64,000 nt of DNA from Bacteroidales bacterium (lineage in GTDB: Bacteria > Bacteroidota > Bacteroidia > Bacteroidales > UBA12077). Shown here piece after piece: positions 1 to 48,151 of this stretch. The stretch lies in contig JBFXEQ010000005.1 in NCBI GenBank assembly GCA_050179935.1, positions 39,738 to 103,737 of the forward strand, in the 5' to 3' direction. The position numbers and the translations under genes were made by a program. Below the pieces are notes generated by a model. The model saw only the letters and a program-made list of their open reading frames with translations. It was not told where the DNA came from and ran no database searches. The first letter of the stretch is position 1; every line of letters starts with the position of its first letter.

Positions 1-371
1 ATCGTTCTGTAGCACAACAACACGGATTAAAATATATTTTGCTCCCGGATTCAGTTAATTTAAAACTTCCTGAACTCAATGAATTTTATCAAACTGCAAG
101 TGTTGAGATCATAGGTAGCAAACCTGGTGAAAAACTAATGCAAACTGGGCAGGCTATGGTTTATGGAATTACCATTTTAAAAAATGCACCAAATAAAGAA
201 CTGGCTGAAAAATTCTTAAAGTTTGTACTGGATGATAATGGTGGTAGAAAAATTCTGGAAAATAATGGTCAACCAGCATTAAAGCAAACAATTCCCGAAC
301 AACTGAATAAAATACCTAGTAATATCAAAATCCTTTTAAACAGATATTTTTTTTTGAAAAATGCTTTGTAA
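1..371 (+). CDS. Tungstate/molybdate ABC transporter periplasmic substrate-binding protein (WtpA/ModA-like), C-terminal fragment; 5' end lies outside the window
   Basis: The reading frame is open from the window edge (frame of nt 3). The listed TTG at 39 is internal. The tail 'GQAMVYGITILKNAPNKELAEKFLKFVLDDNGGRKILENNGQ' resembles the C-terminal lobe of WtpA-type solute-binding proteins. Matching permease and ATPase genes lie downstream. Confidence 0.65.
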   Translation, partial: RSVAQQHGLKYILLPDSVNLKLPELNEFYQTASVEIIGSKPGEKLMQTGQAMVYGITILKNAPNKELAEKFLKFVLDDNGGRKILENNGQPALKQTIPEQLNKIPSNIKILLNRYFFLKNAL

Positions 372-386: not shown

Positions 387-394
387 TACTTTTG
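387..394 (+). promoter_or_regulatory. Candidate Bacteroidota sigma-A -7 box (TAnnTTTG)
   Basis: 'TACTTTTG' sits 60 nt upstream of the ATG at 454 and immediately upstream of the palindrome at 399-422. Confidence 0.4.
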
Positions 395-398
395 CATG

Positions 399-422
399 CG
401 ATATGTTATTTGTAACATAACG
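399..422. promoter_or_regulatory. Candidate ModE-type operator (24-nt inverted repeat CGATATGTTA-TTTG-TAACATAACG)
   Basis: 10-nt arms with one mismatch. The half-sites resemble the E. coli modA operator (CGTTATAT...ACATAACG). A related 24-nt site with the same left arm 'GCGATATGTT' occurs at 35636-35659, upstream of the ModE-like gene. Confidence 0.5.
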
Positions 423-453: not shown

Positions 454-1047
454 ATGAAAAAAACTATTTATTTATTATTATTTGCTTTTATAGCAACAAC
501 AACTTTTGTATCGTGCGAAGACGAGGAAGAAACCAAATCACCATTTATAACAGTAAAAATGGGTGCTCAGTCGAATACAACTATTGGAGCATTTTATTCA
601 ATCGAAATGAATAGTGTTTACAATCAAGCTGTTGCATTTACAAAGCAAGACACAATTGATTTTCTTTGTTTTTATGAGCATGATGAAATCAACGACAGAA
701 TTAACGATATGACCTTGGCATCACCGGGAGCAAATATAACCGATATTTTTGTTGATGATATTACTACATCTCCTGATGTTTGGACAACCAAAAACTTAAC
801 CAAATTTCAAGAACCTAATCCAGCAATGACAGTAGCTCAGTTCGATTTATTAAAAGAAACTGATGCTATTATTGAAACCAGTTTTGACAATACAGTTCTC
901 AGTGGAAATAAAAAAGCAAAATTACTTGCTGTTAATGATATTTATGCTTTCAAAACTCATAACAATCAATATGGTTTGTTAAAAGTAACTGAAGTACTAG
1001 AAGGAAATGATGGATATATAAAATTTGTTTACATCATTAAAAAGTAA
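454..1047 (+). CDS. Lipoprotein, uncharacterised family (paralog 1 of 3 in this window)
   Basis: Signal peptide plus lipobox 'TTFVSC'. Its C-terminal block 'KKAKLLAVNDIYAFKTHNNQYGLLKVTEVLEGNDGYIKFVYIIKK' is shared with the ORFs at 1163-2065 and 37331-38275. It also carries the mid-block 'ASPGANI'. Confidence 0.7.
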   Translation: MKKTIYLLLFAFIATTTFVSCEDEEETKSPFITVKMGAQSNTTIGAFYSIEMNSVYNQAVAFTKQDTIDFLCFYEHDEINDRINDMTLASPGANITDIFVDDITTSPDVWTTKNLTKFQEPNPAMTVAQFDLLKETDAIIETSFDNTVLSGNKKAKLLAVNDIYAFKTHNNQYGLLKVTEVLEGNDGYIKFVYIIKK

Positions 1048-1067
1048 TTCTGATTAATTATAAAAAA

Positions 1068-1110
1068 TCCTACGTGAGTCTTTGTTATTCCCGTAGGGTT
1101 TTCCTTTTTT
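1068..1110 (+). terminator. Possible intrinsic terminator or attenuator hairpin
   Basis: 'CCTACG' (1069-1074) pairs with 'CGTAGG' (1092-1097) and is followed by 'TTTTCCTTTTTT'. The loop is long, so support is weak. Confidence 0.4.
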
Positions 1111-1162
1111 CCAATTATCCAAAAATAATTTATTGATTTTTTGAAAAGCTAACTATCAAACC

Positions 1163-2065
1163 ATGAAAACTAGTTGTATAATTGTAGTTACAGCTCTACT
1201 ATTCCTATTTACTCAATGTACTGAGGACGAAAATGTAACTTCGACTCCCTTTATTTTGCTAAAAACTGGGCTTTCCTATACAAATAATGAAGCTTACATT
1301 CCAGTTGGAGGTCAATTAAATTTTGGCATTTCAGCAGTAGGGGATGGATTTGAGATCACAAATCTTACTGTTAAACGCACCACAAATGCAGGTTCAGTAA
1401 CAGAGCTTGATAAAGGAATGTTTATTAAACAAGGTGGATTGGATACCATTCTGACTTATTACAAAGGTTATGCAGATCAGGAAACATGGGTTTTTTCGAT
1501 CATGAATAGTAATCGCGATACGGCTTCTGTTTCAATCATTGTTTATAAAGGTTCCGGAAGTGCTTATGGTGATATTGATTTTTTCCCTTCTATCACAATT
1601 GGATACCAAAACAATTCCTCTCTTCCTAATTTTGTTGATGTAAACACAGGATTGGCTTATACAGGTTCAACGGTATCAGGCAATGAATCTCTCATTGATT
1701 TAGTTAGTTATTATTACTTAAGTTCTGGATCATCATCTCCTACAATTTCATGTCCATCGTATAATACAGCAAAATCATATTATCCGGTAATGAACGACTG
1801 GGTAGTTCAAAATTCAACGGTTTATGATTATTATACTACAGATAATAACTTAATTTCTACAACTCAGTTTGATGCTGCACAAAATGATAGCTTGCTTATT
1901 AATGGATATAAACCCGAAAGCGTAAGTGGAACTTGTAAATTTTGTTTTGCTGATAAAGTGATTCCATTTAAAACAGGACAAGGGAAATACGGATTAATTA
2001 AAGTGATTCATGCTGACGAAACTGATACCGGGCACATTGAAATTGCAGTAAAAATTCAGAAATAA
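1163..2065 (+). CDS. Lipoprotein, uncharacterised family (paralog 2 of 3)
   Basis: Lipobox 'LFTQC'. Its C-terminal block 'KVIPFKTGQGKYGLIKVIHADETDTGHIEIAVKIQK' aligns with the tails of ORFs 454-1047 and 37331-38275. It lies directly upstream of the TBDR. Confidence 0.7.
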   Translation: MKTSCIIVVTALLFLFTQCTEDENVTSTPFILLKTGLSYTNNEAYIPVGGQLNFGISAVGDGFEITNLTVKRTTNAGSVTELDKGMFIKQGGLDTILTYYKGYADQETWVFSIMNSNRDTASVSIIVYKGSGSAYGDIDFFPSITIGYQNNSSLPNFVDVNTGLAYTGSTVSGNESLIDLVSYYYLSSGSSSPTISCPSYNTAKSYYPVMNDWVVQNSTVYDYYTTDNNLISTTQFDAAQNDSLLINGYKPESVSGTCKFCFADKVIPFKTGQGKYGLIKVIHADETDTGHIEIAVKIQK

Positions 2066-2075
2066 CGAATTGAAG

Positions 2076-4397
2076 ATGAAAAAACTAGTTGTACTTATTA
2101 TATTATTTACCTTATTTTCAGGAATTGTTTTTGCCCAATCGTCGATTAAGGGAACTATTGTTGATGAAGATACTTTTACAGCAATCAGTTTTGCTAATAT
2201 CTCTATTAATAAAGGGAAAGGTACTGTAAGTGACGAAAATGGAAATTTCATACTGAAAAACCTAAAACCAGGCAATTATACACTACAAATTTCATTTGTA
2301 GGATATGAATCAGTATTTCAAAATATTAAGGTAAATGACAACGAGATTCTTGAGCTTCAGATTAAACTAAAACCTTCTAATTATACAGCCGAAGATGTTG
2401 TAATTACTGCCACAAAGACTGAAAATTATATTAAAGATATTCCAACCCGCATAAACCTCATTTCGCCAAGGCAGATTGAAGCATTACCGGCTCAAACAAC
2501 CGACGAGTTACTGGCATTTGTACCTGGTGTAAATATTAACCGATCGTTTGGTATTTACTCGCATTCAGCTGCTGTAACCATGCGCGGACTAAACGGACAG
2601 GAACAAGGTCGTGTGTTGGTTATGATTGATGGAATTTCTGTTAATAAGTCTGATGGCGGATCGGTAAACTGGAATTTGTTAAATAATGATCAGATTGATC
2701 GTATTGAGGTAGTTAAAGGCCCCGGATCTTCACTTTATGGAGGAAATGCCATGGGTGGAGCAATAAATATCATCACCAAAAAACCTACAGAAAATATTCA
2801 GGGCAAATTAAGTGTTGATTATGGTACTTATAACACTATGCGAAGTCAATTGTATTTATCAGGTCGTTTAAATCCAGCTATTGATAAAGGTTTTTACTGG
2901 AATCTTAGTAGCTTTTACCGACAAAGCGATGGATATATGACCGCCTCGGAGGCAGATCAACTGGCAAACAAGTATCTTGTTAAATCAGATCTGAAAGAAT
3001 GGGCTGCAACCGCTAAAGTTGGTTACGACTTTAATCAAAACAATGGGCTGGAACTAGACATGCTTTATTATGATGATGATAGAGCTACCGGCGAAAAAGT
3101 TTTTCAACCCGAAGGAAATAATCGAGAGCATGATACCTATCAGATTAGGGCAAAGTATAATGGTCAGAAAAACAAGTTGAACTGGACTATTAATCTATTC
3201 TATCTAAACGAAGATTATAAAAGGATAAGCGAATATTATAAAGACGATTATACATTTTACAAAGTACTATCTGAAAGGGTTGATTTGGGTGCATTATCTT
3301 CCTTATCGTACAATTTGAAAAACCAAATAATAACAGGTGGTGTTGATCTTAAGCAAGGCCGTGTTGATGCAAAAGATATTTATTATACCTCATCCGATAT
3401 AGTTTATAACCGCGGTAAAATGAATACGCTGGGATTATTTATTCAGGACGAAATAAAATTACTGAATAATAAACTAAAAGTTATTGCAGGATTAAGATTT
3501 GATTATGCCAACTTCTTTGATGGAGGATTTGAGATTGAGAATCCTACTGCGGAAACTACTTTTATGTTAGCTTATCATGATGACAATTTAAAAGAAGATA
3601 CATGGAATGCATTAAGTCCTAAATTGTCGGTACAGTATGAATTTACAAATGATTACCGCATTTACGCCAGCTTTTCCAAAGGATTTAGACCTGCTGTTTT
3701 AGATGATATGTGTCGCTCAGGAAGAATAAAAGGCGGATTTAAAGTTGCCGATCCAGGTTTGCAGCCGGAATACCTAAGTAATTTTGAAATTGGTGCTGAT
3801 GCCAAATTCTTTCAGCGATTAAGAACATCATTATCTGCTTTTTATTCTATGGGTGATGATTTTATGTATTATGTTAATACCGGCGATTCTATTGATCTTG
3901 GCTTCGGTTTGCGTCCTATAATTAAAGCCTCCAATATCTCCGAAGTTGAGATTTATGGACTCGAGTTTGAAGCAAATTATCTGCTTACCGATTATATTAT
4001 TTTTAATGCGAATTATGCCTATTCTCATTCACAAATAAAAGATTTTACACCTTTGAATGTAAGTGATCCGGTTGATTTAACAGGTAAATATTTATCTGAT
4101 GTGCCAAGCCACTCAGGTTCGTTTTCTGTAAACTGGCGTAATAAAATAGTTAATGCAGGTATTAATGCAAAATATACTGGAAGCAGATGGGTAAATGATT
4201 TAAACCAGATGGATGAAATTATTCTGGATGATAAATACCCATCATTTACAACGCTTGATTTGAAATTATCAAAATCATTTAAAATGATTTTTACAACGCT
4301 AAGTATCCAGAATATTCTTGATACCAAGTTTTACGATAGCAAAGGAGCAGTCTGCCCCGGCAGATTTATTACACTTGAATTAGGTCTAAAGTTTTAA
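2076..4397 (+). CDS. TonB-dependent outer-membrane receptor with an N-terminal CarboxypepD_reg-like domain
   Basis: Signal peptide, then 'GTIVDEDTFTAISFANISI...NLKPGNYTLQISFVGY' and a plug block 'RIEVVKGPGSSLYGGNAMGGAINIITKK'. It ends with a C-terminal aromatic, 'LELGLKF'. I prefer the ATG at 2076 over the TTG at 2070. Confidence 0.9.
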   Translation: MKKLVVLIILFTLFSGIVFAQSSIKGTIVDEDTFTAISFANISINKGKGTVSDENGNFILKNLKPGNYTLQISFVGYESVFQNIKVNDNEILELQIKLKPSNYTAEDVVITATKTENYIKDIPTRINLISPRQIEALPAQTTDELLAFVPGVNINRSFGIYSHSAAVTMRGLNGQEQGRVLVMIDGISVNKSDGGSVNWNLLNNDQIDRIEVVKGPGSSLYGGNAMGGAINIITKKPTENIQGKLSVDYGTYNTMRSQLYLSGRLNPAIDKGFYWNLSSFYRQSDGYMTASEADQLANKYLVKSDLKEWAATAKVGYDFNQNNGLELDMLYYDDDRATGEKVFQPEGNNREHDTYQIRAKYNGQKNKLNWTINLFYLNEDYKRISEYYKDDYTFYKVLSERVDLGALSSLSYNLKNQIITGGVDLKQGRVDAKDIYYTSSDIVYNRGKMNTLGLFIQDEIKLLNNKLKVIAGLRFDYANFFDGGFEIENPTAETTFMLAYHDDNLKEDTWNALSPKLSVQYEFTNDYRIYASFSKGFRPAVLDDMCRSGRIKGGFKVADPGLQPEYLSNFEIGADAKFFQRLRTSLSAFYSMGDDFMYYVNTGDSIDLGFGLRPIIKASNISEVEIYGLEFEANYLLTDYIIFNANYAYSHSQIKDFTPLNVSDPVDLTGKYLSDVPSHSGSFSVNWRNKIVNAGINAKYTGSRWVNDLNQMDEIILDDKYPSFTTLDLKLSKSFKMIFTTLSIQNILDTKFYDSKGAVCPGRFITLELGLKF

Positions 4398-4416
4398 TAA
4401 AATAATAAAAGCAATT

Positions 4417-5490
4417 ATGAAAAAACTATTTACAATTATTCTTGTAGGAATAAGCATTACAGCATGTAATGTAAAACAAACTGACAGTACAGCTGAGAAC
4501 AAATATCAGCGACAATTAACTGCCGACACAATTGATGCAACAAATGATTTTTATGATAACGCTGAAACTCATTTATTACCAGCACAACAACTTACCGTTG
4601 AAGGTGAAATAAGCAATCCAGGAATTGTAGATTTTACAAAGCTTCCATTGCGCAGTGTTATTGTTAAAGAAACACTTTTATCTGACAGTGGTGATAAATT
4701 TATTGGCGCTTATCGATATGATGGATATGCGCTTTACGACATTCTAAATCAGGTAAAACTGAATAAAAAAAACAAAGAAGAATTTAACCCGATTATTGAT
4801 TTATATGTTCAGATCGAGAATAACAAAGGCGAAAAAGCAACTATAAGCTGGGGCGAAATTTTTTACCCAAACCACTTACAGGAGATTATTATTGCCACTC
4901 AGGTTATGCGTATTGTGCCTTCAAAAACCAACGATCTTTGGCCTTTGCCCGAAGAAAGCAAGTTAGTTGTTTCGAGAGATCTGATAACTGAAAGAAATAT
5001 TTCATCACCAGTTAAAATAATTGTAAAATCATATCCAAAATCATTCGAAACAATTAAAGGATTAAAACCACTATTTTCCCCAACTATCGATATTTATAAC
5101 GAAAACGAGAAAATAGAAACTCTTACAGAAAATCCAAAAGAGTTGCAGATAGAAAAATTCAACACTATTTTTTATGGCCGTGGCAGAGGAATCCATTCTA
5201 CACAACCATTTACAGGTGTATTATTAAAAGATGTTTTGTTAAAAAATACTACATTTGATCAGAAAAATATCCGTGAAGGAATTTTCGTTGTTGTAGCAAA
5301 AGATGGATATAGAACTGTATTTACGTTTAGCGAAATAATGAATCGAAACGATCAAGCAGAGGTTCTTTTGGTTTGTCGCCCAGAAACAACAGATGATGGA
5401 ATTTTTAGATTATTTCCTGCATGCGATTTCTTTTCCGATAGAGCAGTAAAAGGAATAAACGCTATTTATTTTTCGGCTAACGAACAATAA
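4417..5490 (+). CDS. Lipoprotein with two tandem domains that resemble the molybdopterin-oxidoreductase (SUOX/YedY-type) fold
   Basis: Lipobox 'SITAC'. Segments such as 'FTGVLLKDVLLKNTTFD..REGIFVVVAKDGYRTVFTFSEIMNRNDQAEVLLVC' and 'YRYDGYALYDILNQVKL' recall the 'W.GV.L.dLL....v.f.a.DGY....' pattern of that fold. The fold assignment is tentative. Confidence 0.55.
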   Translation: MKKLFTIILVGISITACNVKQTDSTAENKYQRQLTADTIDATNDFYDNAETHLLPAQQLTVEGEISNPGIVDFTKLPLRSVIVKETLLSDSGDKFIGAYRYDGYALYDILNQVKLNKKNKEEFNPIIDLYVQIENNKGEKATISWGEIFYPNHLQEIIIATQVMRIVPSKTNDLWPLPEESKLVVSRDLITERNISSPVKIIVKSYPKSFETIKGLKPLFSPTIDIYNENEKIETLTENPKELQIEKFNTIFYGRGRGIHSTQPFTGVLLKDVLLKNTTFDQKNIREGIFVVVAKDGYRTVFTFSEIMNRNDQAEVLLVCRPETTDDGIFRLFPACDFFSDRAVKGINAIYFSANEQ

Positions 5491-5492
5491 AA

Positions 5493-6287
5493 ATGTATAA
5501 AAACAGGCTAAGTAGATTAGATATTATATTCTTAATTCTTGGTGGACTAATATTACTTTTTATTATTAGTCCACTACTTGGTATGTTTTTAGCCACAACA
5601 CCTGCACAATTTTTCGAAACATCAAAAGATCCCGAAGTACTTAATAGTATTTGGTTAACACTTTGGGTTTCGTTTGTCGCTACCATTATTTTTGCGTTTG
5701 GCGCAATTCCTCTATCCTACTTTCTAGCCCGAACCAATTTTCGGTTTAAAGGAATAGTAAATGGAATAGTTGATTTACCAGTGGTAATACCACATTCGGC
5801 TGCAGGTATTGCTATTTTGGGGTTTGTATCGCGCGATTCGGTGCTTGGTAAAATTGGTTCATCGATGGGGCTTAACTTTGTTGGTCATCCGGCTGGAATA
5901 GCAGTTGCCATGGCCTTTGTAAGTATTCCGTTTTTAATTAACGCTGCCCGCGATGGATTCGAAAATGTTCCGGAACGACTCGAAAAGACAGCTCTTAATT
6001 TGGGAGCGTCTCCTGTTCGTGTTTTTTTTACTATTTCGTTGCCTCTGGCCTGGAAAAATGTGTTATCGGGATTAATTATGATGTTCGCTCGTGGATTAAG
6101 CGAATTTGGTGCCGTAATAATCATTGCATATCATCCAATGATTACGCCTGTACTTATATTTGAACGTTTTGGTGCTTTTGGTTTAAAATATGCCCGACCC
6201 GTTTCGGTTGTATTTATTATCGTTTGCCTTGTGTTTTTTGTTCTGCTAAGAAGTCTTGCCAAAGAAAGGAAATCAAACGATGCTTAA
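5493..6287 (+). CDS. Tungstate/molybdate ABC transporter permease (WtpB/ModB family)
   Basis: Multi-TM protein with 'DLPVVIPHSAAGIAILGF', the EAA-type loop 'ERLEKTALNLGASPVRVFFTISLP' and the 'IIIAYHPMITPVLIFERF' block typical of WtpB-like permeases. Confidence 0.85.
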   Translation: MYKNRLSRLDIIFLILGGLILLFIISPLLGMFLATTPAQFFETSKDPEVLNSIWLTLWVSFVATIIFAFGAIPLSYFLARTNFRFKGIVNGIVDLPVVIPHSAAGIAILGFVSRDSVLGKIGSSMGLNFVGHPAGIAVAMAFVSIPFLINAARDGFENVPERLEKTALNLGASPVRVFFTISLPLAWKNVLSGLIMMFARGLSEFGAVIIIAYHPMITPVLIFERFGAFGLKYARPVSVVFIIVCLVFFVLLRSLAKERKSNDA

Positions 6288-7320
6288 ATTAAAAGATATT
6301 TCGATTAAACTGGGCGATTTTAAGCTAAAGAACATTGATCTTGAGTTGGAAAAAGAGGATTACTATGTTTTATTAGGCAAATCAGGAGTTGGAAAAACGG
6401 TTCTGCTCGAAATTATTGCCGGATTAATAAATCCAGAATCAGGGCAGGTATTTTTAAATGATATTGATATTACCCACGAAAAAATTCAGAAGAGAAAAGT
6501 AGGCATTGTATTTCAGGACTATTCTATTTTTCCGCATTTATCAGTAAAGCAAAACATAGCCTACCCGTTAAAAGGAAAAAACCTGAACATCCAGCAGGCT
6601 GAAAAGCTTATAAATGAATTTGCTGAGTTAACCAATATTTCTCATTTACTAAACCGATCAACCAAAAAATTATCAGGAGGCGAACTACAACGTGTAGCGT
6701 TGGCCCGAACATTAATTACCAAACCCGATTGTCTTTTATTGGATGAACCACTGGCATCGCTAGATATACAACTAAAAGGTGATTTACGAAATTTACTTCG
6801 CAAAATAAACCAGAACGGAACAACCATTTTGCATGTAACCCACGATTATGAAGAAGCAATTGCGTTGTCGAATAAAGTAGCCGTAATGCATGAAGGTGAG
6901 ATTATTCAAAAAGGATTAACAAAAGAAGTATTTCAAAAACCTACTAATGAATTTGTGGCCAATTTTACCGGAATAAAAAACTTTTTTTATGCTGAGTTTA
7001 CGCCAATTAATACGGCCAAAATAAACGACAACGTTGAAATCCATATAAGCAATCATGAGCAATTAAAAACTGGCAAAATAATAATTCGAGGCGAAGAAAT
7101 TATTGTTTCAGAAAACTGCTTACAGTCAAGTGCTACCAATAATTTTAAAGGTAAAATACTCCAGATTATCCCCTATTTTTCGAATTACGAATTAATTGTT
7201 GATATAGGGATTGAACTATCGGTGGTAATATCCGAAGAGTCTTTTTCGAAATTTAATTTTAAAAATCATTCAGAGGCATGGGTTTCATTTAAATCAACAG
7301 CTATAAAAATCATCCCTTAA
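6280..7320 (+). CDS. Tungstate/molybdate ABC transporter ATP-binding protein with a C-terminal TOBE-like domain (WtpC/ModC family)
   Basis: Walker A 'GKSGVGKT', signature 'LSGGELQRVALAR', Walker B 'LLLDEP', and a C-terminal OB/TOBE-like tail. I prefer the ATG at 6280, which overlaps the permease stop by 8 nt, over the TTG at 6256. Confidence 0.9.
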   Translation: MLKLKDISIKLGDFKLKNIDLELEKEDYYVLLGKSGVGKTVLLEIIAGLINPESGQVFLNDIDITHEKIQKRKVGIVFQDYSIFPHLSVKQNIAYPLKGKNLNIQQAEKLINEFAELTNISHLLNRSTKKLSGGELQRVALARTLITKPDCLLLDEPLASLDIQLKGDLRNLLRKINQNGTTILHVTHDYEEAIALSNKVAVMHEGEIIQKGLTKEVFQKPTNEFVANFTGIKNFFYAEFTPINTAKINDNVEIHISNHEQLKTGKIIIRGEEIIVSENCLQSSATNNFKGKILQIIPYFSNYELIVDIGIELSVVISEESFSKFNFKNHSEAWVSFKSTAIKIIP

Positions 7321-33250: not shown

Positions 33251-34879
33251 TTACTCCTCTAAAAATGGATATTTATAACTCACAGGTGGTACAAAGCATT
33301 CTTTAATTGTGCGTGGTGAAACCCAACGCAATAAGTTCAGATACGATCCTGCTTTATCATTTGTACCCGACCCACGGGCGCCTCCAAATGGTTGTTGACT
33401 AACAACCGCACCTGTTGGTTTGTCGTTAATATAGAAATTACCGGCAGCATGTTTCAATCGTTCCATAGCTCTTTCTATAACATATCTGTCTTTGGAGAAT
33501 ATCGATCCGGTTAAAGCATAAATGGATGTTGTATCGATTAATTCCAATGTTTCTTCAAACTTGGATGGATCATATAAATAAATGGTCAAAACCGGCCCAA
33601 ATAATTCTTCCTCCATGGTTACATAATGAGGATCTTTAGTAAGAATTATAGTCGGTTCAATAAAATATCCTTTTGACTTATCGTAGTTTCCGCCATGTAT
33701 GATTTCGACATTTTTATCTTGTTTTGCACGATCAATATAACCAGCAAGTTTAGTAAAGGATGCTTCATCAATAACAGCATTCATAAAATTGGTGAAATCT
33801 TCAACCGGACCAACTTTAATGGTTTCCATATCGCATTTTATCTCACATAAAACTTCATCCCATTTGTTTTTTGGAATATAAGCCCTGGAAGCAGCAGAAC
33901 ATTTTTGTCCCTGGTATTCGAATGCCCCGCGAGTTAATGCAGTTGCTACTTGAGTTGCATTTGCTGATTCATGCATTAACACAAAGTTCTTCCCTCCGGT
34001 TTCACCAACTATGCGCGGATATGATTTATATTTTGAAATATTATTTCCAATCTCTTTCCAGATATTTTGAAATACAGCTGTTGATCCTGTAAAATGAATT
34101 CCTGCAAAATCGGGATGCGAGAAAATTACATTACCTGCTACAGGCCCTGAAACAAACACCAGGTTTATAACACCATCGGGCAATCCAGCCTCCATAAATA
34201 TTTCCATAATAACACGCGCTGAATATATCTGAGCATTCGAAGGTTTCCAAACTACGGTATTTCCCATCATGGCTGGAGCCGCAGGCAAGTTAGCTGCAAT
34301 AGCTGTAAAATTAAATGGTGTTAACGCAAATACAAATCCTTCGAGTGGGCGTTGTTCTAATCTGTTCCATACTAACTCACTTGAATTGGGTTGTTGATTG
34401 TAAATCTCTGTCATGTACTGCACATTAAATCGCAGAAAATCTGCAAACTCACAAGCAGCATCAATCTCAGCCTGATGTACCGATTTTGACTGGCCCAACA
34501 TGGTTGCCGCATTAATACGTGCACGATAAGGACCTGCAATCATTCCGGCAGCTTTCAAAAAGATTGACGCACGTTGTTTCCACGACATGTTTGCCCATTT
34601 CTCTCTGGCTGCTAATGCAGCATCAATTGCATTTTTAACATGGCTTTCGTCTCCACGATAGTAATATCCTAATAAGTGCTTGTGATCATGTGGAGGATGA
34701 ATTTCAATCTTTTTATCTGTTCGCACTTCTTTTCCATCAATGATCATCGGTATGTCGACAACATGGGAGCGTGCCCATTCAATGGCTTTCATTACTTGAT
34801 CCCTCTCAGGAGAACCTTTTACATACGATTTGACAGGTTCGTTCTTTGCCGGTGGCGCAAAATATAAGTTTTGTTGCAT
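33251..34879 (-). CDS. pruA: L-glutamate gamma-semialdehyde (1-pyrroline-5-carboxylate) dehydrogenase
   Basis: ALDH-family motifs 'GETGGKNF' and 'YQGQKCSAASR', with the length and N-terminus typical of stand-alone PruA. Confidence 0.9.
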   Translation of the reverse strand: MQQNLYFAPPAKNEPVKSYVKGSPERDQVMKAIEWARSHVVDIPMIIDGKEVRTDKKIEIHPPHDHKHLLGYYYRGDESHVKNAIDAALAAREKWANMSWKQRASIFLKAAGMIAGPYRARINAATMLGQSKSVHQAEIDAACEFADFLRFNVQYMTEIYNQQPNSSELVWNRLEQRPLEGFVFALTPFNFTAIAANLPAAPAMMGNTVVWKPSNAQIYSARVIMEIFMEAGLPDGVINLVFVSGPVAGNVIFSHPDFAGIHFTGSTAVFQNIWKEIGNNISKYKSYPRIVGETGGKNFVLMHESANATQVATALTRGAFEYQGQKCSAASRAYIPKNKWDEVLCEIKCDMETIKVGPVEDFTNFMNAVIDEASFTKLAGYIDRAKQDKNVEIIHGGNYDKSKGYFIEPTIILTKDPHYVTMEEELFGPVLTIYLYDPSKFEETLELIDTTSIYALTGSIFSKDRYVIERAMERLKHAAGNFYINDKPTGAVVSQQPFGGARGSGTNDKAGSYLNLLRWVSPRTIKECFVPPVSYKYPFLEE

Positions 34880-34958
34880 AATTTATTGTTTTAATTTTTT
34901 GTGTTTATTTATCTTATTTTTTTCATTCTATAGCCTTATTTACAATCTTATTTATTAT

Positions 34959-34987: not shown

Positions 34988-35151
34988 TTTTATAATCCAA
35001 AAACCTTTGAGCTGGTGTTTTGAATTAAATTTTGGAAAATACGTTATGCAAATATAAACATATCGCTTTAATATAAAACAAGATTTTTATCATGTTATAG
35101 CAAAAATTTAAATCACTATTTTTGTACATTAATAACAAAAAAGGATAAGCT

Positions 35152-35433
35152 ATGTTTAAAACAAACGAATATTTCGATGGAAAAGTAAAATCAATAGCTT
35201 TCGAAACAAACGAAGGTCCAGCAACAGTTGGTGTTATGGCAAAGGGTGAGTATGTATTTGGAACATCAACAGTAGAATTTATGACTGTAACATCAGGTAA
35301 TATGACCATTCAGCAACCAGGAGAAACAGAATGGAAATCATACAAAGAGTTTGAAACATTTAAAGTTGCTAAAGATGTTAAATTCAAAGTTAAAGTAGAT
35401 AGCGATACTTCTTATCGTTGTCTTTACAAATAG
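35152..35433 (+). CDS. ppnP: Pyrimidine/purine nucleoside phosphorylase PpnP (YaiE, DUF1255)
   Basis: 'NEYFDGKVKSIAFE...ATVGVMAKGEYVFGT...SYRCLY' is collinear with E. coli PpnP. Confidence 0.9.
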   Translation: MFKTNEYFDGKVKSIAFETNEGPATVGVMAKGEYVFGTSTVEFMTVTSGNMTIQQPGETEWKSYKEFETFKVAKDVKFKVKVDSDTSYRCLYK

Positions 35434-35542: not shown

Positions 35543-35595
35543 AAATAAATAGAAATTTATTAAAATTTTAAAATAATCAAATTTTTAAATTAATG

Positions 35596-35620
35596 CTATG
35601 AAGTTTTTTTAACTTCATGG
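35596..35620 (+). terminator. Hairpin plus T-run (ppnP terminator or attenuator upstream of the ModE-like gene)
   Basis: 'CTATGAAGTT-ttttt-AACTTCATGG' followed by 'TATTTTTTTA'. Confidence 0.5.
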
Positions 35621-35635
35621 TATTTTTTTACTTTG

Positions 35636-35659
35636 CGATATGTTTTTTATATCATATTG
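35636..35659. promoter_or_regulatory. Candidate ModE-type operator, second copy
   Basis: 'CGATATGTTTTTTATATCATATTG'. The left arm and the preceding 'TTACTTTGC' match the site at 399-422, and the right arm is 'CATATTG'. It ends 17 nt upstream of the ATG of the ModE-like gene. Confidence 0.45.
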
Positions 35660-35675: not shown

Positions 35676-36053
35676 ATGGCAGGCTCAAAAGGTTCAAAAT
35701 ATTATGATATTTTTTTGAAATTCAAAGTATGGCTTGAAAATACAAAAGGACAGGGTATTTTAGGCGATGGTAAATTTGAATTACTCGAAATGATCGATAA
35801 ACATGGGTCATTAAGTGCTGCAGCTGATAAAATGGGAATAAGTTATCGCAAAGCTTGGGGTAATGTGAAGGAGGCCGAAGAAAAACTAGGATTTATACTG
35901 GTTGAGAAACATCGTGGAGGAGCGCAAGGTGGAAATTCAGTTTTAACACCCGAAGGTAAAAGACTAATTGAAGCTTACAAAGAGCTTTTAGTTGAATTTG
36001 ATGAATCCATTCATCAAATAACTAAAAAATTCTTCAATAAAATTAATTCGTAG
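35676..36053 (+). CDS. ModE N-terminal-domain-like winged-helix regulator (125 aa, no Mop/TOBE molybdate-binding domains)
   Basis: 'GSLSAAADKMGISYRKAWGNVKEAEEKLGFILVEKHRGGAQGGNSVLTPEGKRLIEAY' matches the ModE/LysR-type HTH_1 N-domain pattern. Confidence 0.8.
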   Translation: MAGSKGSKYYDIFLKFKVWLENTKGQGILGDGKFELLEMIDKHGSLSAAADKMGISYRKAWGNVKEAEEKLGFILVEKHRGGAQGGNSVLTPEGKRLIEAYKELLVEFDESIHQITKKFFNKINS

Positions 36054-36056
36054 ATT

Positions 36057-36797
36057 ATGAGATTCTTTGTGGCAATTGATGATACTGACAATTTAGAATC
36101 AAGAGGCACCGGTTTTAGGGCACGCGAAATGGGGAAACTAATTGTTGAACAAGGCGTTGGTGATGTTGAGTCGATTTCGAGACATCAATTGTATGTTCAT
36201 AAAAATATTCCATATACATCGCACAACAGCTCAGCTTGCTTAATTGTGAATACTGATAAATTTGATGCTTTACAAAAGCTATGCTCTGAATATCTTATTC
36301 GTGAAGCTGCCGAAGGTTCTGATGCAGGATTATGTATTGCCAGAGAAGATTTAATTAACGATGAAATTATAGATTGGGGAATCAGAGCTAAAATAGAGAT
36401 TCTTACAAAAGAAAACGCACATAAACTAGCCAATGAAAGAGGTATTTTTCTTGAAGGATATACAGGAACAAAAATTGGTGTTATTGGATCTCTTGCAGCT
36501 GTGGGATTAAGAAAAGCAGGAAACGACGGAAGAAATATCTGGGTAAAAGGAAAAGAATTACGCGAAATATGTGGCATTTTTTCCGGATCAGAATTAAAAA
36601 CGATTAGTCACATACAGGTTATTAAATCTGTTGATGGCAAATTAATAAATGATAATGAACGAATTGATGTTGGAAATTGGTTAAGGCCGGTTATCCAGAA
36701 TAAAGAAATAACTGTAATTGTAGAAAAAACTAAAAAAAATGAAAACCATGAATGGCAGCACGTATCAAAAGAGTATATCAAGAACATTTCAAACTAA
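36057..36797 (+). CDS. Hypothetical cytoplasmic protein with an N-terminus resembling the TiaS kinase-like (TCKD) domain
   Basis: The N-terminal 'MRFFVAIDDTDNLESRGTGF' resembles the TiaS start motif 'GIDDTDS..GMCTT'. I recognised no OB or Zn-ribbon part. It starts 3 nt after the ModE-like gene. Confidence 0.45.
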   Translation: MRFFVAIDDTDNLESRGTGFRAREMGKLIVEQGVGDVESISRHQLYVHKNIPYTSHNSSACLIVNTDKFDALQKLCSEYLIREAAEGSDAGLCIAREDLINDEIIDWGIRAKIEILTKENAHKLANERGIFLEGYTGTKIGVIGSLAAVGLRKAGNDGRNIWVKGKELREICGIFSGSELKTISHIQVIKSVDGKLINDNERIDVGNWLRPVIQNKEITVIVEKTKKNENHEWQHVSKEYIKNISN

Positions 36798-37317
36798 TAC
36801 ACTTACATTAGTTCTTGAGATATTATTATTGTTAGCATTAGGAATCGGTGCAATTGTATTGCGTTCAAACCTCCGTATTCCATTAAACATACCCGGCCGT
36901 CATGGATTGGAGTTTATGGCAATTATTATGATTGGACGCAGGATTTCTAAGTTGCCATTTGCAACCATAATTATGATGCTGGGAGCATCAAGCTTTATGT
37001 TTTTCCCATTTATAGGAATCAAAGATCCATTTTTGCCAATAATTTATGTTGTTATGGGAGTTGTAGTTGATACTTTGTATTTATTATTCCGAAATCCCGC
37101 TAAAAGACTGGCAATTCTTACTCTAATTGGAGGTTTAGCCTATATGGTAATACCAATTAGTCGTTTAACCATTTATCTTTTTACAGGCGTTCTTGAATCT
37201 TCATTTATTAAGTGGGGATTTGTTGTCCCTGTTTTATCTCACTTTGTATTCGGAATTGCCGGTGCATTATTAGGAGCCGGATTCGTTTATTCAATCAATA
37301 GAATTATAAAAAAATAA
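36739..37317 (+). CDS. Small polytopic inner-membrane protein (about 5-6 TM), unknown family
   Basis: Hydrophobic segments occur throughout. It overlaps the upstream gene by 50-59 nt (ATG at 36739 or 36748), which suggests translational coupling. Confidence 0.6.
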   Translation: MKTMNGSTYQKSISRTFQTNTLTLVLEILLLLALGIGAIVLRSNLRIPLNIPGRHGLEFMAIIMIGRRISKLPFATIIMMLGASSFMFFPFIGIKDPFLPIIYVVMGVVVDTLYLLFRNPAKRLAILTLIGGLAYMVIPISRLTIYLFTGVLESSFIKWGFVVPVLSHFVFGIAGALLGAGFVYSINRIIKK

Positions 37318-37330
37318 AAAATCGCTTTTT

Positions 37331-38275
37331 ATGAAGATTATTAAACCTATGGTTGGCGATATGAAAAAAAGAACCTGTCGGTACTTTTATAACTCACTAT
37401 TTGTATTGTTACTTATACTTCTTACAATTAATTATTCATGTAACGAAGAAGACAAAAACGATTTTTCGGATCCGGAAATAAATATCATAAATCTACCTGG
37501 GCATGTTTTCTCTGACTCGACAATTTCTGCAGGACAAAAATTTATTGTAGGTGTAGAAGCTACATCAAACGGGCATAATAAACTAACCAATTTTATTGCA
37601 AAAGTAAACGGTGAAAGATATTTGGATCTGGGAATTTTTTCAGAAACCTTTAATAAAGAAATTGAAATTACCAAAGGACTTAGCGAAACGGATGTTTGGG
37701 AATTTATAATTCGAGATATTGAAGGAAATTGGGCAAGCAAGAGCATAACAATTACTCAAGGTGATTCAACTGGATTTGGCGAAATTGATACGTACTTAAA
37801 TGTTTATTTGGGAGCTCAAAATAGCACTCTTTACGGAAGTTTCTTTTCTTTAGGTACTGGTACTGTTTATAATTTGCAAGATGCATTTACAAATTCAGCC
37901 CTTATTGATTTAGTATATTATTATGATGATTTTGATAAGCTAGAGAAATGTATCATGGCATCGCCAGGAGCAAATATTGGTGAAACAGCCTTTCCGGGTG
38001 AATTTGCCATAGCTAATTGGGAAACAATTAATACAACCCGATACAGCAAAGAAAAGCTCTCCCTTTCAATTGAAGAATTTGACAATGCTTTAAATGATAG
38101 CATTTTAATAGCAAACACATTTGCTTTCGAAACCGGTGGGCGTAAAGCAAAACTCCTACAAACTGGCGATATGTTTGCATTTGTAAGAGATAACAAAACA
38201 GGAATATTTAAAGTGGTGAATACATTGGAATCAAATAGCGGTTATATTGTTGTTGATATAAAAATTCAAAAATAA
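37331..38275 (+). CDS. Lipoprotein, uncharacterised family (paralog 3 of 3)
   Basis: Lipobox 'TINYSC'. The true start may be the ATG at 37361, 'MKKRTC..'. It shares the mid-block 'ASPGANI' and the C-terminal 'RKAKLLQTGDMFAFVRDNKTGIFKVVNTLESNSGYIVVDIKIQK' with ORFs 454-1047 and 1163-2065. Confidence 0.7.
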   Translation: MKIIKPMVGDMKKRTCRYFYNSLFVLLLILLTINYSCNEEDKNDFSDPEINIINLPGHVFSDSTISAGQKFIVGVEATSNGHNKLTNFIAKVNGERYLDLGIFSETFNKEIEITKGLSETDVWEFIIRDIEGNWASKSITITQGDSTGFGEIDTYLNVYLGAQNSTLYGSFFSLGTGTVYNLQDAFTNSALIDLVYYYDDFDKLEKCIMASPGANIGETAFPGEFAIANWETINTTRYSKEKLSLSIEEFDNALNDSILIANTFAFETGGRKAKLLQTGDMFAFVRDNKTGIFKVVNTLESNSGYIVVDIKIQK

Positions 38276-38280
38276 GTTGC

Positions 38281-40569
38281 ATGATGATTTCAAAAAAAAT
38301 AATTCAAATAGTACTCGTTCTTTTTCTATTCCCCATTTCGGTTTTTGCTCAAATCGAATTATCGGGAAAAATTATTGACTCAGTTACGAATGAATCATTA
38401 TCAGGGGCCAATATTGTTTTGCTAGAAATACAGCACGGTGTTTCCAGTAATAAAAATGGTGAGTTTACGGTTCTAAATATTAACCCCGGAACTTACACTA
38501 TACTTGTTTCATTTGTAGGTTATTACAATCAAGAACTAACACTTTTGGTTGATGAAAACAATAATCATGTTATAATTAAATTGAATCCATCTGTTATTGA
38601 AATGGAAAAGGTAATAATTACAGCAACTTTAACAGAACGAAAGATTGAAGATTTACCTGGTCAGAATGAAATTATCGAAAAGAACACGATAGAAGGTTAT
38701 CCTGTTTCCAATACTGATGATCTTCTTCAATCCATTTCAAATATTAATGTTAACCGCAGCTGGGGGATTTTTTCCAAAAATTCATCAGTAACTATGCGTG
38801 GTTTGGAATCGGCTCAAGGAACGTTGATTCTTTATAATGGTGTTCCCCTGAACAAAACTGCTGGAGGTTCAATTAACTGGCATATGATTTCTCCTGACCG
38901 GATTGAACGAATTGAAATAATAAAGGGTCCAAGCTCTGCTCTATATGGAAATAATGCTATGGGCGGAGTTATTAATATCATCACAAAAAAAACAAACGAA
39001 GAGATTTCGGGAGATATAAGAGCATTTGGTGGTACTTATGGCACTTATGGCGGAAAACTGAATCTTGAAGGAAATCAAAAGCTATTTGGGAAAAAATTTT
39101 ATTGGGGTGTTAATGGATTTTATCGACAAGGTGATGGGTATATTATAGAGCCGTTAAATCTTCGAGATTCAACAGATGTTAAGGTTTACCTTAAAGAAAA
39201 CCGCTTAGGAGCGATGGTTGGCTATGAGTTTAATCAAAACAATAAACTTGAAGTTGAATATAGCTATTATGACGATAAACGAGGCGACGGAAAACAGGTT
39301 TATTTCGACGATGGTGGTTATGTTAAGTACACAACAAATTTTGTGCGCGCAAAATACAACACACAGATTGCTTCTTTTAAGATTGAAGCAAACGCATATT
39401 TTCAGAACGAAGATTTTTACCAGTTTACCGAATCTATAAATGATGATGGCAATTATAAGCTCTCGTACAAAGATCAAATTTCAAGAGATTACGGGATTTG
39501 GACAAATGCTACAAAAAATTTTGGCGAACACAACTGGCTTACATTTGGAGTTGATTTTAAACAGGGATTTATGGATGCATCAGATGTTTACCTAACATCA
39601 ACAGATACTGTTTTGCGCGATGGCAAAATTCAATCGTATGCTGCTTTTATTCAAGATGAACATCGATTTTTTAATGAAAAACTAAAGATTATTGCCGGAT
39701 TGCGATTTGATTATTCACGTTTCTATAATGCTTCGATTTATGTTGGCGATCCATCAGTAAATACAGGATTTGAAGAATCCTTTTCAGAAAATTATAAAAA
39801 CTCCGATTGGACTGCATTAAGTCCAAAGCTTGCTATTCAATATGACATTTCAAAATCAATTAAGTCTTATATTTCAGCATCATCAGGCTTTATGCCGGCT
39901 ATTATAGACGATATGATTTCGTCTCGAAAAATAAATAAAGGGTTTAAGCAAGCTAACCCTGAATTGCAGCCTCAAACTTTATACAATTACGAAATAGGGT
40001 TTAACACAAAACCATTTAAAAAGGCACAATTAAAAACAGCCGCCTATTATTCGAAAGGTAAAGATTTTCAATATTTTGTCGGTACCGGCAATTATATTGA
40101 CGGACAGCCTGAACTGATGCGAGAAAACATTGCTGAAGTTGAAATTATTGGTGCAGAAATATCATTCCAATACGATTTTACGAATCAATTAATTTTTAAA
40201 ACAAATTACACTTATAATAGCTCAATTATTAAAGATTTTGATTTAACCAATTATACAGGCGATGATTTATCAGGCAAACAGCTTATAGATATTCCCTGGC
40301 ATCAGGCTTTTGCAGGGTTCTTTTGGAAAAACAGGTTCATCAATACAACTCTTACAGCTAATTATATTGGTAAAGAATATTCAGACGAACAAAATATTCT
40401 TATTATTGATGATTATGTAACAATTGATCTAAACCTATCAAAGACTATTTATCGTAATTACTCCTTATCACTGGATATTCAGAATCTATTCGACAAGGTG
40501 TATATTGATAAAAAAGACAGACTATCACCTGGAAGATTTATTGTTTTTGAATTTGGGTATAAGTTTTGA
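38281..40569 (+). CDS. TonB-dependent outer-membrane receptor with a CarboxypepD_reg-like N-domain (paralog of 2076-4397)
   Basis: 'GKIIDSVTNESLSGANI..NINPGTYTILVSFVGY', 'RIEIIKGPSSALYGNNAMGGVINIITKK', 'LKIIAGLRFDY' and a C-terminal 'FEFGYKF'. It is collinear with the first TBDR. Confidence 0.9.
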   Translation: MMISKKIIQIVLVLFLFPISVFAQIELSGKIIDSVTNESLSGANIVLLEIQHGVSSNKNGEFTVLNINPGTYTILVSFVGYYNQELTLLVDENNNHVIIKLNPSVIEMEKVIITATLTERKIEDLPGQNEIIEKNTIEGYPVSNTDDLLQSISNINVNRSWGIFSKNSSVTMRGLESAQGTLILYNGVPLNKTAGGSINWHMISPDRIERIEIIKGPSSALYGNNAMGGVINIITKKTNEEISGDIRAFGGTYGTYGGKLNLEGNQKLFGKKFYWGVNGFYRQGDGYIIEPLNLRDSTDVKVYLKENRLGAMVGYEFNQNNKLEVEYSYYDDKRGDGKQVYFDDGGYVKYTTNFVRAKYNTQIASFKIEANAYFQNEDFYQFTESINDDGNYKLSYKDQISRDYGIWTNATKNFGEHNWLTFGVDFKQGFMDASDVYLTSTDTVLRDGKIQSYAAFIQDEHRFFNEKLKIIAGLRFDYSRFYNASIYVGDPSVNTGFEESFSENYKNSDWTALSPKLAIQYDISKSIKSYISASSGFMPAIIDDMISSRKINKGFKQANPELQPQTLYNYEIGFNTKPFKKAQLKTAAYYSKGKDFQYFVGTGNYIDGQPELMRENIAEVEIIGAEISFQYDFTNQLIFKTNYTYNSSIIKDFDLTNYTGDDLSGKQLIDIPWHQAFAGFFWKNRFINTTLTANYIGKEYSDEQNILIIDDYVTIDLNLSKTIYRNYSLSLDIQNLFDKVYIDKKDRLSPGRFIVFEFGYKF

Positions 40570-40632
40570 TTGTTCTTTTACAAAAAAATGGTGCAATTTT
40601 GCAATATAATTGGTTGGATTATAACTTAACAA

Positions 40633-41430
40633 ATGAATCACTCTGATACTTTTTCTTTATATTCACGATGGTTTTCAGCATATATAAACCATTTCCTGGT
40701 ATTACATCCCGATTTGGCAGAAAATATCCAGATTAAAGCCGATCACAGCAGAAAAGTACACCACGAAATCCTTGGATTAGCAAAAAACATAAAACTTACC
40801 GAAGGAGATACATTTATAGCCGAGACCATTGGACTTTTTCATGATATCGGCCGGTTTAAACAATATGTAAAATACCAGACTTTTTCCGATTCAAAATCGC
40901 AAAACCATGCTGAGTTAGGCGTTGATGTTCTTAAAGAAAATAATGTTTTAAAAAATCTTACCCCAGAACAGCAAGAAATTATTTATAAATCAATTCTTAA
41001 TCATAGCAGAGCCGAGATTGCTCCTGATACTAATGAAAAAGTGATTTCCTTTTCAAAAATGATTCGCGATGCAGACAAACTCGATATCTGGCGACTAATT
41101 ACCGAATACTATATGGTAAAAGAGCAAAATGAAAACAAAACACTTGAGCTCGAATTGCCGGATAACGAAGAAATTTCGGACGAAGTTCTGCAGGCAATTT
41201 TAAACCACCAATTAATATTAAAAGAATCGTTGAAAACCCTCAATGATTTTAAACTGTTGCAGATAGCTTGGATTTTTGATCTGAATTTCGATTATTCAAT
41301 CCAACGGCTTTTTGAAAAAAAATATCTCGAAAAAATAATTAGAACTTTGCCACAGAACAACAAGGTAAATAAGGTTAAAACCTTGGTAGATTCTTATTTT
41401 AGGGAGCATATTAAAACATTTGCCCAATAA
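40633..41430 (+). CDS. HD-domain phosphohydrolase-like protein
   Basis: 'H...GLFHDIGR' HD motif and a downstream 'DADKLD'. Confidence 0.75.
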   Translation: MNHSDTFSLYSRWFSAYINHFLVLHPDLAENIQIKADHSRKVHHEILGLAKNIKLTEGDTFIAETIGLFHDIGRFKQYVKYQTFSDSKSQNHAELGVDVLKENNVLKNLTPEQQEIIYKSILNHSRAEIAPDTNEKVISFSKMIRDADKLDIWRLITEYYMVKEQNENKTLELELPDNEEISDEVLQAILNHQLILKESLKTLNDFKLLQIAWIFDLNFDYSIQRLFEKKYLEKIIRTLPQNNKVNKVKTLVDSYFREHIKTFAQ

Positions 41431-41478
41431 TAACTGATATAAAACCAAAGAATAACTATTTTTGTAAAAATTTTGTAG

Positions 41479-42651
41479 ATGATAACCATAGAAAAAGCAT
41501 ATCAAACAGTTATAGGAAAATCATACACACTGGAAACAGAGAAGATTGATTTTATTGATTCTGTAGGGAGAATACTTGCTGAAGATGTAACTTCGGATAT
41601 TGAAATGCCTCCATTTGATAAATCATCGATGGATGGATATGCTTGCCGGCGAGCAGATGTTGATAATACACTCGAAATTATAGAAATTATTCCAGCAGGA
41701 AAAACACCAACCAAAAGAATTGGTCCAAATCAGTGTGCAAAAATAATGACCGGAGCGCCCGTTCCAGAAGGAGCCGATTTTATTGCAATGGTCGAATACG
41801 CCGAAGAGATTGATGATAAATATGTAAAAATCAACAAAATAACTCAGCGCAATAATATAAGCTATCGTGCCGAAGATGTTAAGATTGACCAATTGGTATT
41901 GCAGAAAGGTATAAAAATTAAACCTCAGCATATTGCCGTTTTTGCTTCGGTTGGATATACCAATGTTTTGGTAACAAAACAACCTAGAGTTGCAATTATT
42001 TCTACTGGCGATGAGTTGGTTGAGCCGCATAAAAAACCGGGTATTTCGCAGATCAGAAACAGTAATGGTTATCAACTAATTACACAAGTAAAATCGTGTG
42101 GAGCTATTGCAAATTATATTGGAATTGCAGATGATACTCCTGAAGATACTTTCAATAAAGTAAGTAAAGCATTATCTGAGAATGATTTGGTGCTTTTAAC
42201 CGGTGGTGTCTCTATGGGTTCGTTCGATTTTGTTCCCGAAGTATTGAAAAAAGCAGGAATAGAAATTTTGTTCGATTCTATAGCAGTAACACCTGGGAAA
42301 CCAACAACATTTGGTGTTACTGGTAAAAAATTCTGTTTTGGATTACCCGGAAACCCAGTTTCATCATTCATACAATTTGAATTATTAGTAAAACCATTAA
42401 TTTATAAGTTGATGGGATTTGATTTTCAACCATTGGATATACAAATGCCTATGGGTATTGAATTTAAACGCAAAAAGACAGATCGTAAAGCATATATCCC
42501 CGTGTTTATTAAAGATGGAGAAGTTTTTCCTGTTGAATATCATGGATCAGCGCATATACATGCTTTATCGTTTGCACACGTAATAATTGCTTTTCCAATC
42601 GGAGTTGATACGTTATTAAAAGGAGAAATCGTTCATGTACGACAAATATAA
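41479..42651 (+). CDS. moeA: Molybdopterin molybdenumtransferase MoeA
   Basis: 'PPFDKSSMDGYA', 'IMTGAPVPEGAD', 'TGDEL' and 'LTGGVSMGSFDF' motifs. Confidence 0.92.
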   Translation: MITIEKAYQTVIGKSYTLETEKIDFIDSVGRILAEDVTSDIEMPPFDKSSMDGYACRRADVDNTLEIIEIIPAGKTPTKRIGPNQCAKIMTGAPVPEGADFIAMVEYAEEIDDKYVKINKITQRNNISYRAEDVKIDQLVLQKGIKIKPQHIAVFASVGYTNVLVTKQPRVAIISTGDELVEPHKKPGISQIRNSNGYQLITQVKSCGAIANYIGIADDTPEDTFNKVSKALSENDLVLLTGGVSMGSFDFVPEVLKKAGIEILFDSIAVTPGKPTTFGVTGKKFCFGLPGNPVSSFIQFELLVKPLIYKLMGFDFQPLDIQMPMGIEFKRKKTDRKAYIPVFIKDGEVFPVEYHGSAHIHALSFAHVIIAFPIGVDTLLKGEIVHVRQI

Positions 42652-43435: not shown

Positions 43436-43440
43436 AAGAA

Positions 43441-43525: not shown

Positions 43526-43530
43526 TTCTT

Positions 43531-48143: not shown

Positions 48144-48151
48144 CTACAAAC

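Follow-up and report, generated by a model that had tools for sequence, protein, structure and literature searches.

We found that the window (the whole 64-kb stretch of Bacteroidales DNA that we analysed) carries three intergenic copies of one 24-bp dyad, and that related genomes keep this dyad at the promoters of molybdenum and tungsten (Mo/W) uptake genes. Judged by sequence and conservation, these boxes are real, conserved ModE-type operator sites, for which binding is predicted. The explanation that we favour, and regard as highly probable, is that they are bound by the 125-aa ModE-like protein encoded in the window, which would repress a single Mo/W regulon. This regulon would comprise the tungstate/molybdate uptake genes, the regulator gene with the cofactor-synthesis genes downstream of it, and a P5C (L-glutamate gamma-semialdehyde) dehydrogenase gene.

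ModE-type boxes in the window

An earlier note on this DNA had pointed to two sites, at 399–422 (box 1) and 35636–35659 (box 2), and both positions were confirmed; the two fit one 24-bp dyad with the consensus CGWTATG-N10-CATAWCG. For box 1 the coordinates were right, but the string quoted for it really covers 386–422. Box 1 (CGATATGTTA-TTTG-TAACATAACG) is indeed an inverted repeat with 10-nt arms and one mismatch. The linking of the two sites also stood, though the set was incomplete, since box 3 (35042–35065) and a decayed internal box (37357–37380) had been missed. Both original sites had been placed in front of operons of a lipoprotein and a TonB-dependent receptor. This is correct for box 1, which occupies part of the 82 nt that separate the wtpA-like gene from the operon of the 197-aa lipoprotein, whereas box 2 fronts the regulator gene, the first of the second operon, and ends 16 nt 5' of it (Table 1).

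The pattern CGWTATG-N10-CATAWYG matched the window three times (at 399, 35042 and 35636) and was not found in 100 dinucleotide-preserving shuffles, and three sites had at most one mismatch to CGATATG-N10-CATATCG, against 0.005 expected. Boxes 1, 2 and 3 are all intergenic. The decayed box has two mismatches, both in the right arm, and overlaps the codon (37361) at which the 314-aa lipoprotein gene probably starts. Its equivalent over this start codon is perfect in nine relatives (L004, L007, L009, L010, L011, L012, L016, L018 and L019) and has no -7 box upstream; such an internal box may act as a roadblock or a looping partner. A fifth box (CGATATGATTATATTTGCATCTCG) was found to the left of the window, 15 nt 5' of the wtpA ATG (positions 4891–4914 of the source contig, L081). 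Finally, three sites with three mismatches (16011, 34524 and 61468) were rejected; they showed no link to the regulon and their number was about that given by chance.

Table 1. Boxes, predicted promoter elements and genes discussed in the text, in window coordinates.
Feature	Position	Strand	Basis or remark
WtpA-like tungstate/molybdate binding-protein gene, 3' end	3..371	+	NCBIfam WtpA, E 1e-30
-33-like TTTG, predicted promoter of the lipoprotein operon	365..368	+	inferred; -34 to -31 if G394 = -5
-7 box TACTTTTG, matches TAnnTTTG	387..394	+	TAyTTTTG in orthologues
ModE-type box 1 CGATATGTTATTTGTAACATAACG	399..422	.	predicted +1 to +24; sequence and conservation
First operon: 197-aa lipoprotein, 300-aa protein, TonB-dependent receptor 1, 357-aa lipoprotein, WtpB, WtpC	454..7320	+	
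P5C dehydrogenase gene	33251..34879	-	TIGR01236, 786.7 bits, above cut-off
ModE-type box 3 CGTTATGCAAATATAAACATATCG	35042..35065	.	sequence and conservation
-7 box TATATTTG of the predicted P5C dehydrogenase promoter, in the box 3 spacer	35049..35056	-	sequence and conservation
PpnP-like gene	35152..35433	+	conserved neighbour of the regulator; box 3 centre about -75 from predicted start
Terminator-like hairpin with T-run, between ppnP and the regulator promoter	35592..35624	+	
-7-like box TTACTTTG, near-match, abuts box 2	35628..35635	+	sequence and relatives
ModE-type box 2 CGATATGTTTTTTATATCATATTG	35636..35659	.	predicted -4 to +20; autoregulatory position
125-aa regulator, winged-helix, ModE N-domain only	35676..36053	+	PF00126; TIGR00637
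Second operon, remainder: 246-aa protein, 192-aa membrane protein, 314-aa lipoprotein, TonB-dependent receptor 2, HD protein, MoeA, MoaA, MoaC	36057..43992	+	
Decayed internal box CGATATGAAAAAAAGAACCTGTCG	37357..37380	.	2 mismatches, both in the right arm

Conservation of the boxes in related genomes

We examined 80 loci (927 kb) anchored on regulator orthologues of 54–98% identity, all of them from uncultured Bacteroidales, Marinilabiliales and relatives. These loci contained 39 perfect boxes, where shuffles gave 0.02, and 86 boxes with at most one mismatch, where shuffles gave 0.64. A box lay at most 60 nt from the regulator ATG in 25 out of the 29 loci with at least 70% identity, which supports the proposal, already made from the two original sites, of a single putative regulon under the adjacent ModE-like protein. 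The same was seen in 14 of the 51 more distant loci, and 23 of those 51 had no box at up to two mismatches. The box in front of the regulator has constant half-sites, CGATATG and CATAT(A/C/T)G, and a variable 10-nt spacer, with no covariation; this autoregulatory box is systematically imperfect, its right arm reading CATATAG or CATATTG.

Other boxes of the relatives precede the 197-aa lipoprotein gene, wtpA and wtpB, and four genomes have one before an aldehyde:ferredoxin oxidoreductase (AOR) gene that diverges from a DUF364 gene. The presence of the box before wtpA, wtpB, the lipoprotein/TonB-receptor operons and the AOR gene of relatives likewise fits one putative regulon. The AOR gene under the box encodes 717 aa with AFOR_N and AFOR_C domains (L072, 2815–6074; also L074, L076 and L077), and its divergent partner is a DUF364/DUF4213 gene ('putative heavy-metal chelation'). 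In another locus (L058, 2272–3166) a box precedes a DUF364 gene that is followed by an NTPase gene.

An independent set of 60 metagenomic loci was obtained by alignment of homologues of the 197-aa lipoprotein, and 54 of them have upstream sequence. A box with at most one mismatch was present directly 5' of the lipoprotein gene in 43 of these 54, down to about 36% protein identity.

In some of the regulator loci (L043, L051, L052, L063, L071, L080 and L030–L041), which are distant ones, the box is variant or missing. Some distant clades have the variant CGTTATG-N10-CCRTTCG, with an asymmetric right arm, and no box with up to two mismatches was found in loci of the Rikenellaceae/Tenuifilaceae type, which have regulator-wtpABC operons. 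The operator may have diverged in these distant regulator clades.

The first operon and its predicted promoter

The genes of the first operon were assigned with Pfam, NCBIfam and synteny. The earlier note had proposed that this operon has its own promoter, separate from the binding-protein gene, and the metagenomic loci bear this out: a TAnnTTTG, about 4 nt and the box accompany the lipoprotein gene whatever gene is upstream, and the wtpA gene upstream has a second box of its own. In particular, TAnnTTTG followed by 3–5 nt and the box occurred in 22 out of 25 unique metagenomic contexts. In the five loci where wtpA is the upstream gene, a box lies between both genes in all five, and a second box precedes wtpA in all three of the wtpA-lipoprotein loci that have that region. 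The source contig is organised like these loci, with its own box before wtpA in addition to box 1. No terminator-like structure was called between wtpA and the lipoprotein gene, and there is no T-run after site 1, so that transcription may read through; even if it does, the pattern of conservation clearly points to a promoter-operator unit belonging to the lipoprotein operon itself.

The two TonB-dependent receptors, at 2070–4397 and 38281–40569, are paralogues (41% identical). Their location within WtpABC/cofactor operons under ModE-type boxes suggests that they bring tungstate, molybdate or a metallophore across the outer membrane. The NCBIfam models nearest to both receptors are heme/hemoglobin receptors, below the cut-off. 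The 357-aa lipoprotein (4417–5490) has no family match; its gene always stands between TonB-dependent receptor 1 and wtpB in L034, L037, L050 and L051, and homologues are found near AOR in L072, L074 and L077.

Promoter geometry and proposed mechanism

The Bacteroidetes sigma-A -7 box, TAnnTTTG, spans positions -12 to -5 (PMC9723704), and we predicted start sites by applying this geometry to the TAnnTTTG positions; sigma-70 promoter scans are uninformative for Bacteroidetes. Both original sites lie just 3' of a -7-like box, as had been noted, with TACTTTTG (387–394) and a TTTG (365–368) ahead of box 1 and the near-match TTACTTTG (35628–35635) ahead of box 2. Box 3 and the wtpA box contain TATATTTG in their spacers, oriented to P5C dehydrogenase and wtpA, respectively, and each is predicted to cover about -21 to +3. 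The AOR boxes are placed differently, ending 20 nt before a TATATTTG, with the centre of the box at about -44.

We propose that a dimer of the 125-aa protein most likely occupies each 24-bp dyad. Boxes 1 and 2 would begin at about +1, after the -7 box, and the boxes of wtpA and P5C dehydrogenase would enclose it; since the boxes overlie the -7/+1 region, the bound regulator would occlude RNA polymerase, i.e. act as a repressor. The earlier suggestion of a repressor that blocks initiation is thus supported as likely by the overlap of the boxes with predicted core promoters of the Bacteroidetes type. From homology and regulon content we infer that the 125-aa protein binds the boxes and that this binding tracks tungsten/molybdenum sufficiency; binding would repress, with occlusion as the likely mechanism. 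Two points sit less easily with repression. The AOR boxes (about -44) and box 3 with respect to ppnP (about -75) have positions that would suit activation, and E. coli ModE activates at some promoters (PMC12327845). Moreover, co-repression of moeA, moaA and moaC with the regulator under plentiful metal is counter-intuitive.

The regulator and the second operon

Both sequence and predicted structure identify the 125-aa protein as a homologue of the ModE N-domain. Against TIGR00637 (ModE_repress) it gave E 3e-23 and 81.7 bits, which is below the curated cut-off of 98.5 bits, and its best sequence matches in the PDB were 2ijl (E 9e-12) and E. coli ModE (1b9m, E 5e-11). The best fold matches of its AF2 model (pLDDT 85) were 1b9m, 1o7l and 2ijl, and LysR DNA-binding domains ranked below them; 2ijl, a 135-aa putative ModE from A. 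tumefaciens, was the best full-length one (TM-score 0.79 normalised to target).

PF00126 (LysR/ModE-type helix-turn-helix) was the only domain of the protein, and the C-terminal di-Mop/TOBE part that characterises full-length ModE is absent. Among the 120 closest of the 513 homologues found, those listed being 109–148 aa long, none had a Mop/TOBE domain. phmmer searches with two queries, the C-terminal part of E. coli ModE and the TOBE domain of WtpC (the first-operon WtpC carries one), matched only WtpC proteins. As neither the window nor about 140 related loci yielded a stand-alone TOBE ORF, a separate Mop/TOBE sensor near the regulator was rejected. Because the regulator has no Mop domain, molybdate or tungstate may not alter DNA binding by the regulator alone.

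At the place of the terminator-like hairpin between ppnP and the regulator promoter, relatives also have a hairpin, with differing stem sequences. In the window, the T-run of this hairpin (35592–35624) continues into the regulator's -7 box.

Homology between the proteins of 197 aa and 192 aa was looked for and rejected, as none was detected; the latter is in fact a polytopic membrane protein. The 300-aa and 314-aa proteins of the two operons are 27% identical. The 246-aa, 192-aa and 314-aa genes (36057–38275) form a module with TonB-dependent receptor 2 and are absent from relatives without this receptor. The 246-aa protein is cytoplasmic and weakly resembles the TiaS TCKD domain and methanogenesis marker 11; it was rejected as an obligate partner of the regulator, since it goes with the receptor 2 module and is missing from many regulator loci. 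On the 3' side of the second operon (47697–49635) there are genes for a MOSC-domain protein, a 305-aa MoaB/MogA-like fusion and an HDIG protein, with no box in front.

The spacer between P5C dehydrogenase and ppnP

Box 3 has a perfect or one-mismatch counterpart at the equivalent place in most relatives. The box in this spacer is most often the perfect CGATATGCAAATATATACATATCG, and the P5C dehydrogenase promoter box is the best conserved of all. Its distance to the P5C dehydrogenase ATG is 31–66 nt in relatives, or 133–163 nt where an insert is present. The gene is apparently under the control of box 3, judging from the position and conservation of the box. We know of no link of P5C dehydrogenase to tungsten or molybdenum. 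The idea of a metal-free aldehyde dehydrogenase that backs up tungsten-dependent AOR was demoted to a weak guess, the gene being a clear P5C dehydrogenase. A second aldehyde dehydrogenase paralogue lies downstream of it in many relatives. The 5' leader of the window gene (about 34880–35040) is lengthened by about 100 nt of inserted sequence, which contains a GC-rich hairpin (AACCCCAGACC...GGCTGGGGTT, about 34961–34987); of the relatives, only the closest one (L001) has this insert, and others have unrelated inserts there.

On the other side of box 3 is the PpnP-like gene, which encodes 93 aa. In 35 of 71 loci, drawn from several families, such a gene immediately precedes the regulator in the same orientation, with a gap of only 3 nt in three loci. 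The protein matches the solved PpnP 7eyp over its full length (E 1e-29) and is probably a real nucleoside phosphorylase by this similarity. A role of this cupin as an oxyanion sensor was rejected on the same match, and only the synteny was kept. Nearly all close relatives share the element AAAACAAGATTTTTRTCATGTTT (35070–35100), located between box 3 and the -7 box of ppnP. It probably holds the -33 regions of both divergent promoters, and it could be a second protein-binding site, with the imperfect dyad ACAAGAT-N4-ATCATGT.

Alternative explanations

The strongest competitor, which we consider possible though unlikely, is that the ModE-like protein does bind the boxes, yet without being a repressor that senses the metal itself. 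It could bind constitutively, be set by its own level, or be controlled in trans by a partner or another signal (e.g. the cofactor), and at the AOR (about -44) and ppnP (about -75) promoters it may activate rather than repress. The lack of Mop/TOBE in the protein and its listed homologues, together with the lack of a stand-alone TOBE ORF nearby, speaks for this, as does the M. acetivorans ModE, which does not respond to molybdate in vitro (PMC12327845); so do the AOR boxes, which stop short of the -7 box. Against it, the content of the regulon (wtpABC, cofactor genes, AOR) indicates a tungsten/molybdenum signal, and most boxes overlap -7 or +1, which fits repression. A partner in trans is hard to place among the neighbours, as the 246-aa protein is missing from many loci and the PpnP-like protein resembles solved PpnP enzymes.

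We consider it quite improbable that a different transcription factor recognises the boxes and that the ModE-like gene merely shares their neighbourhood. Binding by ModE is predicted from sequence, and co-occurrence is partly built into loci that were selected by the regulator. Yet the dyad matches two experimentally defined ModE operators, the autoregulatory box is present in 25 of the 29 close loci, and no other regulator gene was consistently present.

Still less probable is that the palindromes are RNA hairpins, whether they form structure in the 5'-UTR, attenuate, terminate transcription after wtpA or hide a start codon in a stem. Site 1 does fold at -8.4 kcal/mol (z = -2.6), and the internal box could pair its AUG with CAU, but the other sites fold weakly (-1.8 to -6.6 kcal/mol, z 0 to -1.8). 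The half-sites are kept as sequence, with no compensatory changes, and decay hits one arm only. Several boxes hold the -7 box and are thus mostly upstream of the predicted transcript. At site 1 there is neither a T-run nor a terminator call. A known RNA family was also rejected, as no Rfam family, the Moco riboswitch included, reached its gathering score in the window. Finally, chance AT-rich palindromes, for which a 33% G+C genome with many weak inverted repeats around the sites might speak, are excluded for practical purposes by box counts far above those of shuffles, both in the window and in the related loci, and by a position kept down to 36% protein identity.

Implications

Returning to ModE-type operators bound by the 125-aa protein, the operator is precise and easily scanned, and it can be sought in a widespread group of uncultured anaerobic Bacteroidales. 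It ties unannotated genes to tungsten/molybdenum homeostasis, namely those of two TonB-dependent receptors, four lipoproteins/membrane proteins and the TiaS-like protein. A wider reading, which we put forward as speculative and rather doubtful, is that of a sensor-less ModE whose metal response comes from a partner in trans, and whose regulon amounts to an outer-membrane route of tungstate/molybdate uptake. If so, two paralogous TonB-dependent receptors and dedicated surface lipoproteins would feed WtpABC in anaerobic Bacteroidales, and the regulator would also couple metabolism to metal status by repressing P5C dehydrogenase and, in some genomes, activating the tungsten-dependent AOR. The four or five operators in one genome would make a clean system for the question of how a sensor-less ModE works.

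Comparison with known systems

The boxes have the form of a Mo-box, CGnTAT...ATAnCG, with outer CG pairs spanning 24 bp. They lie at or over the putative core promoters of wtpA, wtpB and the lipoprotein/TonB-receptor/wtpBC operon, and a ModE-family regulator gene is nearby, with a box in autoregulatory position.

TaoR and TunR are tungstate-responsive regulators. Both resemble the present system in governing AOR and tungstate/molybdate transport genes. TaoR, however, is built of HTH_17 and a PBP-like domain (PMC11980592), and both the HTH_17 and the PBP-like sensor are absent from the 125-aa regulator. The Moco riboswitch, which sits 5' of cofactor genes and genes for molybdate transport (PMC2408646), is a structured RNA. 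Its length exceeds 100 nt, whereas the leaders here are only about 35–55 nt long.

The half-sites had been likened to the E. coli modA operator, and rightly so: the MG1655 operator (CGTTATATTGTCGCCTACATAACG) agrees at 13 of the 14 specified consensus positions. It is likewise a 24-bp dyad with outer CG pairs (CGTTATA-N10-CATAACG) that overlaps the promoter of a molybdate transporter, and the N-domain of E. coli ModE is homologous to the 125-aa regulator in sequence and fold. The E. coli consensus is ATCGNTATATA-N6-TATATANCGAT (PMC545781). The two differ in that the E. coli half-site ends in TATA and the Bacteroidales one in TATG, that the E. coli promoter is of the sigma-70 -35/-10 type and the Bacteroidales promoter of the Bacteroidetes -33/-7 type, and that E. 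coli ModE has 262 aa with two molybdate-binding Mop/TOBE domains, while the Bacteroidales protein has 125 aa and none.

The archaeal motif is closer still to the Bacteroidales box than the modA operator is, as far as the sequences go. ModE of M. acetivorans binds RTTATGT-N8-RCATAAY in gel shifts and adjoins a WtpABC-type transporter (PMC12327845). The half-site core (GTTATG / CATAAC) and the spacing are the same, but the protein is archaeal, has one Mop domain and governs alternative nitrogenases. The nearness of the operator to those of E. coli and Methanosarcina indicates that ModE recognition is conserved across domains of life.

Single-domain ModE proteins, as in Desulfovibrio and A. tumefaciens (2ijl), share with our regulator the restriction to a DNA-binding domain. 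The site predicted in Desulfovibrio (CGGTCACG-N14-CGTGACCG) is unlike the Bacteroidales box, and 2ijl has no described operator. How the Desulfovibrio protein senses metal with a DNA-binding domain alone was acknowledged as unknown in 2004 (PMC545781), and the Bacteroidales boxes sharpen this old question. In the literature that we searched, no ModE regulon is described for Bacteroidetes. The ModE type of switch is already well known, and what is new is its occurrence in Bacteroidales, with a regulator that lacks the usual metal-sensing domain.
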